Assembly: GCF_000008625.1 (NCBI RefSeq) | Contig: NC_000918.1 | Span: 596,989-660,988, forward strand | Length of the DNA stretch: 64,000 nucleotides | Source: Aquifex aeolicus VF5 | Lineage (GTDB): Bacteria > Aquificota > Aquificia > Aquificales > Aquificaceae | Reading direction: 5' to 3' | Made by a program: the position numbers and the translations under genes | Notes under the pieces: model-generated | What the model was told of the DNA's origin: nothing | What the model saw: the letters and a program-made list of their open reading frames with translations, nothing else | Database searches by the model: none | In this document: positions 26,634-28,837 of the stretch, piece after piece | Numbering within the stretch: the stretch's first letter is position 1 | Layout: every line of letters begins with the position of its first letter

Positions 26634-27143
26634 ATGACACCTTTTAAAGAACTTCAGAAGTTCATCCACTGGAAAGAGCGATTTTTAAGGGACTACGAAA
26701 AGATAGAGAAAGGAGAACTGGAAAAGATAAGGGAAGAAGTTAAGGAAATGCTCGGGGAGGAGCCCGATGAGAGACTCCTGAAAGCCTTACGCTCCATGTA
26801 CGTGGGAGGAATGGAACACAGGGTAGAAGATGAAGAGATCAGGTACTGGACCAACTGGGGAGGTGTTAAAACTTACGAAACCTTTAACAGGTTTCCCCTG
26901 CTGAGCGATATAGAACTCGCCTTCGTTTTCTGGGCACTCGGGAAGTTATTTGTTCCTCTATTGATGCACGAAACAGGTGTGAAGTCTGAGCCATTCAAAA
27001 AACTAAGCAGGGAAGAGCAGGAAGAGGCAGTTCTGGACGAACTCGATACTTTGTGGGAAACACAACTTACTTTAATTCTTCAAGCTCTTCAATTTCTGGA
27101 TTTGAAGTCTATTTCAAGCGAGAAGCCCTCTTCTGAGGGGTAA
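26634..27143 (+). CDS. hypothetical protein (169 aa)
   Basis: ORF immediately after tadA. No motif was recognised. Confidence 0.4.
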   Translation: MTPFKELQKFIHWKERFLRDYEKIEKGELEKIREEVKEMLGEEPDERLLKALRSMYVGGMEHRVEDEEIRYWTNWGGVKTYETFNRFPLLSDIELAFVFWALGKLFVPLLMHETGVKSEPFKKLSREEQEEAVLDELDTLWETQLTLILQALQFLDLKSISSEKPSSEG

Positions 27144-28837
27144 ACTCTTACTTCCCACCCGTGTTGTTCAATTATCTTCTTTACCAGACTCATTCCCACT
27201 CCAAAACCCTTCGGATTTTTACTGAAAAAGGGCTCAAATATATGCTTAGCTTCCTCTTCTGATAAACCTCTCCCGTTATCCCTGTAAATCAATATTTATG
27301 TGTTAATTTCTATAAGTATCTCCTTTCCGCCGTGTTCTATGGAGTTATTAATCAAATTGTAAAAGACTTCCTTCAGTAATTCCCTGTCTGCCAGTAATAC
27401 TTTATCTCCGTGAACTTTAATACTTATACCTGCGTTCTTGTAGAGTTTGGAGACTTCTTGTATTAAGTCCTTCAAGGAAATCCTTTCTGGTTTCAGTTCT
27501 CTTTCCCTTCCTATACTCCTGAACTGGTTTATTAAATTGTTTATCCTCTCCACTTCTTCGTAAATCGCCTTCACTATTTCCCTCAATTTATCCTTATCTA
27601 TTTCTTCCTTTTCGAGCTGTCTGAGTATCCTTCCAAGGTTCAGCTTTATAGGAGTTAAGGGGTTCTTTATCTCGTGAGCTATCCTTTTTACGGATTCTCG
27701 CCATACCTTGAACCTTTCCGCAAGGACTATCGGGGTTATGTCTTCAAATATGTAAATCTTTCCCTCGTTCTGGTCAACTTCCTGAATCCTGAGGTTTTTA
27801 ATGGATTTAACTTCTTTTAAGAAATTTTCTAGGTTTTCTACTTTCCCGAACATCTGGTTAAAGGTTTTATTCGTGTAAACGTTTCCGTTGTTTTTTTTGA
27901 AAAGTACACCTACTGGGAGGGCATCAAGCAGTCTCTGGAGTGCTTCCTTTTCCTGTTTTAATTTTTCGTAAAGTTCCCTTAAGTTTTCCTTCATAACTAA
28001 AAAAGCACTGCTCAGTTCTTCTATTTCATCTCCTCTTTTTTCAACTTTTATATCCACATTCAGGTTTCCCTTGGATATTTCCAGAGCTTTTTCCGTGAGT
28101 TCTTCAAGGGGTTCACTCACATACCTTGCAAAGAGCATCGCAAGCCATACCGTTGCAAGAAGGGTAAGGAGTCCCACTGAAACCATTAAAAAGGCGTATA
28201 TTCCCGTGACTATGTCTCTGACTTTTGTAAGGGAACGAAGGTCCAAAGCAATACCGCCGAAACGTTCAAGACTCTCGGGAAACTTGTCCTTTTCGACGAG
28301 AACGTACTTATCTCCGAGGCAAAGGTAATAAACTTCCTTGGTTTCCTTTATCTCGTAATTACACGCTTCCTTGAAGACTCCCTTTACAAAATCAAGCTCC
28401 TTAATCTTTTCTTCCGGCAAATTCTTTAAAATTTCCCTTTTTTCGTACAAATCCTTTATCCTGTAATCCTGCAGTTCCCTGTAGGTTAATTCCGCTTCCC
28501 TTATTAAATCCCTAATCTTACCGCTCAAAAACTCCCTCGTGGTTTGGAAAATTAAGAAAGCCGAGAAAATGTTCAAAATAAATAAGGGAACGAATATGTA
28601 AAAGATTAGTACGTTTACGAGTTTTCTCCTGAGTCTGTGCTTTGCTTTGCCTAGGTAAACCTTTATTAACTTCCTGAAAATTACCGCGGAAATTATGAGT
28701 AAGAAAAGCAGGTCAACGTTTATCGCTATTAGTATGAAGGGATAATTTGCATCGGGAAGTTTTTTTAAGTTTAAGAAGAATCCTATATTTACTCCGATAA
28801 GGATAATTAAAGCGAGGAAAAGTAGGAGTTTATTCAC
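27089..28837 (-). pseudogene. phoR: PhoR-like sensor histidine kinase interrupted by a single in-frame TAA inside the HATPase_c domain
   Basis: The upstream ORF has 2 TM helices, a HAMP domain and a HisKA H-box (IAHEIKNPLTPI), and ends ...GGKEILIEINT-TAA. The next ORF is in the same frame after one further codon and reads ILIYRDNGRGLSEEEAKHIFEPFF, the G1/G2 ATP lid. The gene is adjacent to phoU. Confidence 0.8.

Follow-up and report, generated by a model that had tools for sequence, protein, structure and literature searches.

In the reference genome of Aquifex aeolicus VF5, a sensor histidine kinase gene next to phoU is cut by an in-frame TAA within the region encoding its ATP-binding domain, and this locus raises the question of whether the organism has lost the kinase, assembles it from two pieces or never carried the stop codon at all. 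We addressed this question in a 64,000-nucleotide stretch of the chromosome (NC_000918.1; hereafter the window, whose coordinates are used throughout), and find that the TAA at 27298-27296 is very probably a base-calling error in the 1998 reference sequence. In that sequence, the minus-strand kinase open reading frame (ORF; 28837..27296) begins with GTG, runs for 513 codons (513 residues) and ends in ...GGKEILIEINT followed by the TAA. After the TAA, the same frame continues with ATA, TTG (27292-27290) and ATT TAC AGG GAT AAC GGG (ILIYRDNGRGLSEEEAKHIFEPFF...) and closes with TGA at 27091-27089. The features in question are as follows.

27089..28837, minus strand: sensor histidine kinase gene, 582 codons if codon 514 encodes Glu, annotated in two pieces
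27296..27298, minus strand: in-frame TAA of the reference (GAA in other assemblies)
27089..27292, minus strand: 67-residue ORF with a TTG start, containing the G1, F and G2 boxes

The 513-residue product is 100% identical to aq_905 of A. aeolicus VF5 (AAC07011.1/WP_010880552.1), and its Pfam matches are to HAMP, PAS_8 (weak) and HisKA. The continuation beyond the TAA is 68 codons long, supplies the G1, F and G2 boxes of the ATP lid with no frameshift, and matches positions 42-107 of the HATPase_c profile with E = 1.3e-12, so that it is not a chance reading frame. From this layout, the TAA falls between the N box in the 513-residue part and the G1 box in the 68-residue part. The ORF layout and the Pfam matches together confirm the starting point of the original prediction, which was that an in-frame TAA splits the ATP-binding domain of the kinase without any shift in frame. 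RefSeq calls the 67-residue TTG-initiated ORF separately as an "ATP-binding protein" (WP_164930652.1); this protein is really the C terminus of the kinase.

To what extent other sequence data support the TAA was judged from Logan de novo contigs of read sets, compared with the VF5 reference window. Codon 27296-27298 is GAA (Glu) in the assemblies of SRR22575694, SRR22575695 and ERR15087784. Contigs from the same read sets encode P0122, a 582-residue member of the aq_905 90%-identity cluster that reads ...EINTERLIYRDNG, and around codon 514 this intact allele has ACA GAA AGA TTG, in which TTG is an ordinary Leu codon. The original prediction had offered pseudogenization, a point mutation or sequencing error and a split kinase as alternatives, and had named a sense codon on re-sequencing as the observation that would overturn its reading of the locus. 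Three independent read-set assemblies give exactly this sense codon, in conflict with SRR29904084/85 (see below); that interpretation is therefore upheld only in part, with sequencing error, there mentioned in passing, now the favored alternative. The contigs of SRR22575694 and SRR22575695 (SRR2257569x) cover window positions 8472-13985, 17634-26589 and 26613-29460, and differ from the reference at 15 sites that all lie in 23666-27460, the other 13,546 covered bases being identical. Over 17.7 kb, ERR15087784 matches the window at 99.90% identity; it has all 15 of these differences and five of its own (2150, 2296, 9996, 21487 and 25469), each of them a transition and scattered over the window. 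Neither allele was found in JGI metagenomes scanned with a 32-mer carrying N at the two variable sites.

The distribution and nature of the 15 differences carry the argument further, and are best considered with the following two features in view.

23666..27460, no strand assigned: stretch with all 15 differences between the reference and SRR2257569x (0.4% of positions, versus 0 in 13,546)
27294..27460, minus strand: five reference-private differences in the 3' part of the kinase gene, within 167 nt

For 15 uniformly placed differences, the probability of spanning no more than 3.8 kb of the 17.3 kb is ≈7e-9. The differences consist of eight transversions, three transitions and four single-base insertions or deletions (indels), and the transition:transversion ratio of 3:8 among the reference-private changes contrasts with 5:0 among those private to ERR15087784 (Fisher P = 0.013). 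Nine of the 13 single-site differences have, on one strand, a G preceded by A as the non-reference base, against a background of 15% (binomial P = 1.7e-5). A weak G peak after A is characteristic of the rhodamine dye-terminator/AmpliTaq FS chemistry of the mid-1990s. A literature search returned nothing usable on a G-after-A artefact, on errors in this genome, on the run accessions or on A. aeolicus RNA-seq or transcription start site data. Within the kinase gene, a coding-strand G preceded by A is replaced in the reference at 27294 (AGA to ATA, R to I), 27298 (GAA to TAA, E to stop), 27397 (GTA to TTA, V to L) and 27460 (GAA to CAA, E to Q), and the remaining difference, at 27449 (TCA to TCC), is synonymous. 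The "single nonsense codon" originally described thus holds insofar as the TAA is in frame and no frameshift is involved; it does not stand alone, as the reference departs from the intact allele at five nearby positions. Outgroup Aquifex loci share the non-reference allele at ≈12 of the compared positions. The discrepancies are clustered, with a signature of chemistry rather than of mutation, and judged from the base changes themselves, the clustering, the compensating indels, the transversion excess and the context bias appear to fit low-coverage, poor-quality reads far better than a mutational process.

Protein structures provide a further line of evidence. The A. aeolicus AroE entries in the PDB (2HK7, 2HK8 and 2HK9) depart from the reference translation at two residues only, K195E and F233L, and both are sites at which the other assemblies also deviate from the reference. 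Ala at position 32 is common to the PDB entries, the reference and SRR2257569x, and ERR15087784 has T32; since the PDB entries combine A32 with E195 and L233, the cloned DNA, presumably from A. aeolicus, was of the SRR2257569x type. For PhoU (1T72) and TadA (1WWR), used as controls because their genes show no differences between assemblies, the PDB sequence matches the reference exactly. The PDB holds no A. aeolicus entries for TusA, the ThiI-like protein, DUF1858 or DUF3467.

Orthologous kinases are likewise uninterrupted. All of the listed homologues of comparable coverage (120 of 120) are single proteins of ≈570-610 residues, and the closest relatives read ...EINSEKL(L/I)YRDNG, such that the stop aligns with a Glu codon, which is GAA or GAG in three other Aquifex orthologues. 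Nei-Gojobori estimates for the 3' fragment against these three orthologues give nonsynonymous divergence (dN) of 0.038-0.12 with saturated synonymous divergence (dS); relative to the nearest other species, the 68 downstream codons have dN = 0.038 at dS >2 and harbor no second lesion. Hence, the lesion either arose extremely recently or is an artefact, two cases between which dN/dS on the 3' fragment does not discriminate, and an old pseudogene is ruled out by the same values. We also considered an adaptive stop-start junction (S to T, E to stop and K to I, plus CTN to TTG), and rejected it because the intact allele already has ACA ... TTG, leaving only two G-to-T changes private to the reference.

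Taken as an error, the TAA would be one of ≈15 miscalls packed into a 3.8-kb low-quality stretch (window 23666-27460); the real codon would be GAA (Glu), and the gene would encode one intact 582-residue membrane sensor kinase with four hydrophobic N-terminal segments, HAMP, PAS, HisKA carrying H388, and a complete HATPase_c domain that includes the N, G1, F and G2 boxes. The deposited sequence does contain the stop, but the organism most probably does not. Sequencing errors of this kind are familiar from first-generation genomes, with examples in the Mycobacterium smegmatis study of interrupted coding sequences (ICDS; PMC1852416), the 1998 Treponema pallidum Nichols genome as corrected by resequencing (PMC3769245) and the point miscalls in Vibrio fischeri ES114 (PMC2330054). 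The A. aeolicus case resembles an error-caused ICDS in that a gene is broken in a 1990s Sanger genome, its orthologues are intact, one miscalled, inserted or deleted base is the cause and a sense codon emerges on re-sequencing; it differs in that the errors are packed into one 3.8-kb stretch over six genes rather than scattered.

Several observations weigh against an error. From 1094 to 46632, the Logan contigs of SRR29904085 and SRR29904084 agree with the window at 100.000% identity, including the TAA and all other suspect positions; should these be real VF5 reads, at least one stock truly carries the differences. The reference shares the outgroup base at 24877; in AroE, PDB residue 232 is L as in the reference and T in the assemblies, so that PDB and assemblies agree at two of three positions, although residue 232 may have been carried over from the database sequence. 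Finally, SRR2257569x may come from a strain other than VF5. Because one public read set reproduces the reference, the correction is not yet unanimous. The contig numbers of SRR2990408x reach 792,563, one contig breaks inside tRNA-Ser (see below) and there are zero differences from the 1998 sequence across 45.5 kb, which suggests that the sample may be a community of great complexity, perhaps reference-derived or simulated. A look-up of the Hydrogenivirga kinase, made as a test for other reference genomes in SRR2990408x, did not list this sample. Because an intact allele exists, the differences are clustered and biased in context, and the PDB conflicts with the reference, the identity of SRR29904085 to the reference was dropped as proof of a real stop.

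Of the competing explanations, the one that survives best, while still unlikely, is that one laboratory sub-stock of VF5, that of the 1998 sequence and SRR29904084/85, truly carries the nonsense codon, following a localized burst of mutation, for example by error-prone repair synthesis around a break, in which the kinase lost its ATP lid, the ThiI-like gene was split and TusA and AroE were altered. The agreement of SRR29904084/85 with the reference at all 15 positions and over 45.5 kb is as expected from such a burst, and most reference-private changes are derived and damage genes, as expected of mutations not under selection; translesion polymerases, moreover, can yield −1 deletions and transversions. 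Fifteen changes in 3.8 kb with none in 13.5 kb elsewhere are, however, biologically hard to obtain, and the G-after-A bias matches a sequencing-chemistry artefact and has, to our knowledge, no mutational basis. Further, a compensating indel pair only 4 nt apart, as found in aroE, is typical of base-calling, and the PDB AroE is already non-reference at 195 and 233. Were the burst nevertheless true, the locus would record natural clustered, break-associated mutagenesis, with 15 changes over 3.8 kb biased to G after A, in a hyperthermophile that survives the loss of a PhoU-linked kinase and of a ThiI-like tRNA-thiolation gene, and the kinase would be dispensable in culture.

It is extremely unlikely that the stop is both real and tolerated, either because the 513- and 67-residue fragments reassemble as a split kinase or because the TAA is read through. 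The TTG lies 3 nt after the stop, so that termination-reinitiation is conceivable, and the downstream frame is intact, highly conserved and called as a protein by RefSeq. Against this, no Shine-Dalgarno-like motif is present within 20 nt upstream of the TTG at 27292 (the nearest AAGGAG is 27 nt upstream), and this TTG is the ordinary Leu codon of the intact allele. Relatives are neither split nor interrupted by a stop at this position, the TAA separates the N and G1 boxes within the Bergerat fold, and near-identical genomes have GAA; the split kinase originally proposed finds no support here. That a phosphate-sensing kinase linked to PhoU decayed into a pseudogene in the lineage of A. aeolicus, the remaining alternative of the original prediction, is highly improbable, since beyond the stop in the reference and the lack of an adjacent cognate regulator this reading faces an intact allele in genomes otherwise 99.9-100% identical, 68 downstream codons that show no further disabling change or decay at dS >2 from the nearest other species, full-length proteins throughout the listed orthologues and a phoU-kinase pair retained intact by every member of the Aquificaceae examined.

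A base-calling artefact would also have left its mark on the genes that share the 3.8-kb stretch with the kinase, the affected sites and the convergent neighbor being the following.

24265, plus strand: reference lacks a G, splitting a ThiI/NFACT-R_2 gene into ORFs of 251 and 110 residues
24844, plus strand: reference lacks a G after an A run; TusA has 92 residues with an aberrant tail, versus 84 elsewhere
26068..26072, plus strand: compensating −A/+T indel pair in aroE, 4 nt apart, rewriting two codons (TL to LF)
26634..27143, plus strand: DUF3467 gene aq_904, convergent with the kinase gene, the two 3' ends overlapping by 55 nt

The gene combining ThiI/tRNA_Me_trans and NFACT-R_2 (23570-24618, plus strand) encodes 349 residues in SRR2257569x and ERR15087784 and 348-350 residues in other Aquifex. 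In the DUF1858 gene that adjoins TusA (region 24608-25109, plus strand), the differences at 24877 and 24957 correspond to K2R and Q29K. In aroE (25376-26185, plus strand), the reference has K195 versus E195 at 25958, and L232/F233 versus T/L in both the other assemblies and the outgroup locus L003. Two reference-private transversions lie in aq_904, at 26741 and 26974, the latter changing R to T. The same artefact explains the split ThiI-like gene, the odd C terminus of TusA and the two scrambled aroE codons.

Biologically, there is nothing new in this outcome: the PhoU-linked sensor kinase of A. aeolicus is most likely intact and ordinary. Its value lies in the curation of a widely used reference (NC_000918/AE000657), in which six genes in 23666-27460, namely the ThiI-like gene, TusA, DUF1858, aroE, DUF3467 and the kinase, appear to be mis-recorded. 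On this basis, aq_905 would become one 582-residue protein, of which WP_010880552.1 and WP_164930652.1 are two pieces; the ThiI/NFACT-R gene would encode 349 residues and TusA 84, AroE (O67049) would carry E195, T232 and L233, and DUF1858 and aq_904 each appear to have one wrong residue in the reference. Counts of pseudogenes, two-component systems and "split genes" in Aquifex, and models trained on this genome, would inherit the artefacts.

We next place the intact kinase in the context of known sensor kinases. Hydrophobic segments are found at ≈4-24, 33-54, 74-97 and 212-236, as read from the translation, and are followed by HAMP (235-288), PAS (from ≈300), HisKA (381-444, including H388) and the whole HATPase_c domain (484-576). 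HisKA scores 43.8 bits in Pfam (residues 381-444) versus a cut-off of 26.9, and H388, within RIAHEIKNPLTP, is invariant across 21 homologues, as are N494, N498, D520, G522, G524, G544, G546 and G548 of the catalytic boxes. The protein thus has the HisKA dimerization domain with a phospho-acceptor His in the H box that marks class I (HisKA-type) kinases. HATPase_c, which the TAA divides in the reference, is whole on the single polypeptide P0122 (66.3 bits, profile positions 2-105).

The original prediction called this kinase PhoR-like, a description that holds for gene context but not for family. The PhoR models, scored with P0001, a full-length orthologue 88% identical, give 76.9 bits versus a cut-off of 334.2 (TIGR02966) and 60.3 versus 500 bits (NF053855), and no curated NCBIfam model reaches its cut-off for this kinase. 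As judged from predicted domains, the architecture is instead NtrY-type (COG5000), with a multi-pass N-terminal membrane region followed by HAMP, PAS, HisKA and HATPase_c in the same order as in NtrY, and homologues carry the names NtrY (JGI) or COG5000 in their source databases. Distant matches include alphaproteobacterial loci, among the matches listed in a scan of genome collections, few of which were from Aquificales. The A. aeolicus kinase differs from NtrY in that no NtrX (sigma-54 activator) gene is adjacent in the window or in related loci, and in its coupling to phoU. With PhoR it shares a cytoplasmic PAS domain and a position directly downstream of, and overlapping, phoU; it differs from PhoR in having HAMP and four membrane segments, in scoring far below the PhoR cut-offs and in lacking adjoining phoB or pst genes. 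In E. coli PhoR, the PAS domain is the contact site for PhoU.

The kinase gene is conserved next to phoU in Aquificaceae, and in the window phoU is placed as follows.

28830..29495, minus strand: phoU, whose stop overlaps the GTG start of the kinase gene; PDB entry 1T72 is identical to the reference

With phoU directly upstream, the overlap of its stop with the start of the kinase gene indicates that the kinase is translationally coupled to phoU. The order phoU, kinase and convergent DUF3467 gene is kept in A. pyrophilus, other Aquifex, Hydrogenivirga caldilitoris, Hydrogenobacter sp. and metagenome-assembled genomes of Aquificaceae. The overlap of the kinase and aq_904 3' ends (27089-27143, 55 nt) is conserved in loci L003, L004 and L098. 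Gene tables show no receiver-domain gene and no pst genes within ≈8 kb on either side, so that the partner genes expected of a PhoR are missing here, and a tblastn search of the whole 64-kb window with E. coli PhoB returned nothing better than E = 0.07; the original statement that no response regulator is adjacent was correct. Related loci likewise have no adjacent response regulator or pst genes in those flanks for which gene content was examined. The kinase would autophosphorylate and signal to an unlinked response regulator, probably under the control of PhoU. From the gene context and published descriptions of PhoU-kinase systems, such modulation by PhoU of a kinase whose regulator is unlinked is the most likely function.

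In Hydrogenobacter sp. Uz 6-8 (L007:2091-5992), the phoU-kinase pair directly follows genes for a helix-turn-helix/PBP_like regulator, an SBP_bac_11 protein, one permease and an ATP-binding cassette (ABC) ATPase. This transporter is a molybdate/tungstate-like ABC system and not pstSCAB, and the "PhoU" of this clade may therefore serve another oxyanion system.

Finally, the contigs differ in where they end. For SRR29904085, the contig stops at 46632, within tRNA-Ser(GCT) (46604-46695), and that of ERR15087784 projects to ≈52873, past this tRNA gene (by coordinate projection, the sequence having been retrieved to 36837). The break in tRNA-Ser hints at other genomes sharing tRNA k-mers in the SRR2990408x sample. 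SRR29904085 and ERR15087784 both break at 14058-14076, within the gene listed here.

13418-16858, minus strand: reverse gyrase gene (zf_Rg, DEAD, Toprim and Topoisom_bac domains)

The SRR2257569x contigs retrieved stop short of 13986-17633, and the assemblies are all genuinely de novo. A repeat shared with the second of the two reverse gyrase paralogues of A. aeolicus would explain the common break, which suggests that such a repeat lies there. At window position 9996, in the minE region, ERR15087784 has A versus G in the reference and SRR2257569x, and its MinE is called with 66 residues, versus 78 in the others; this is probably a start-codon polymorphism.

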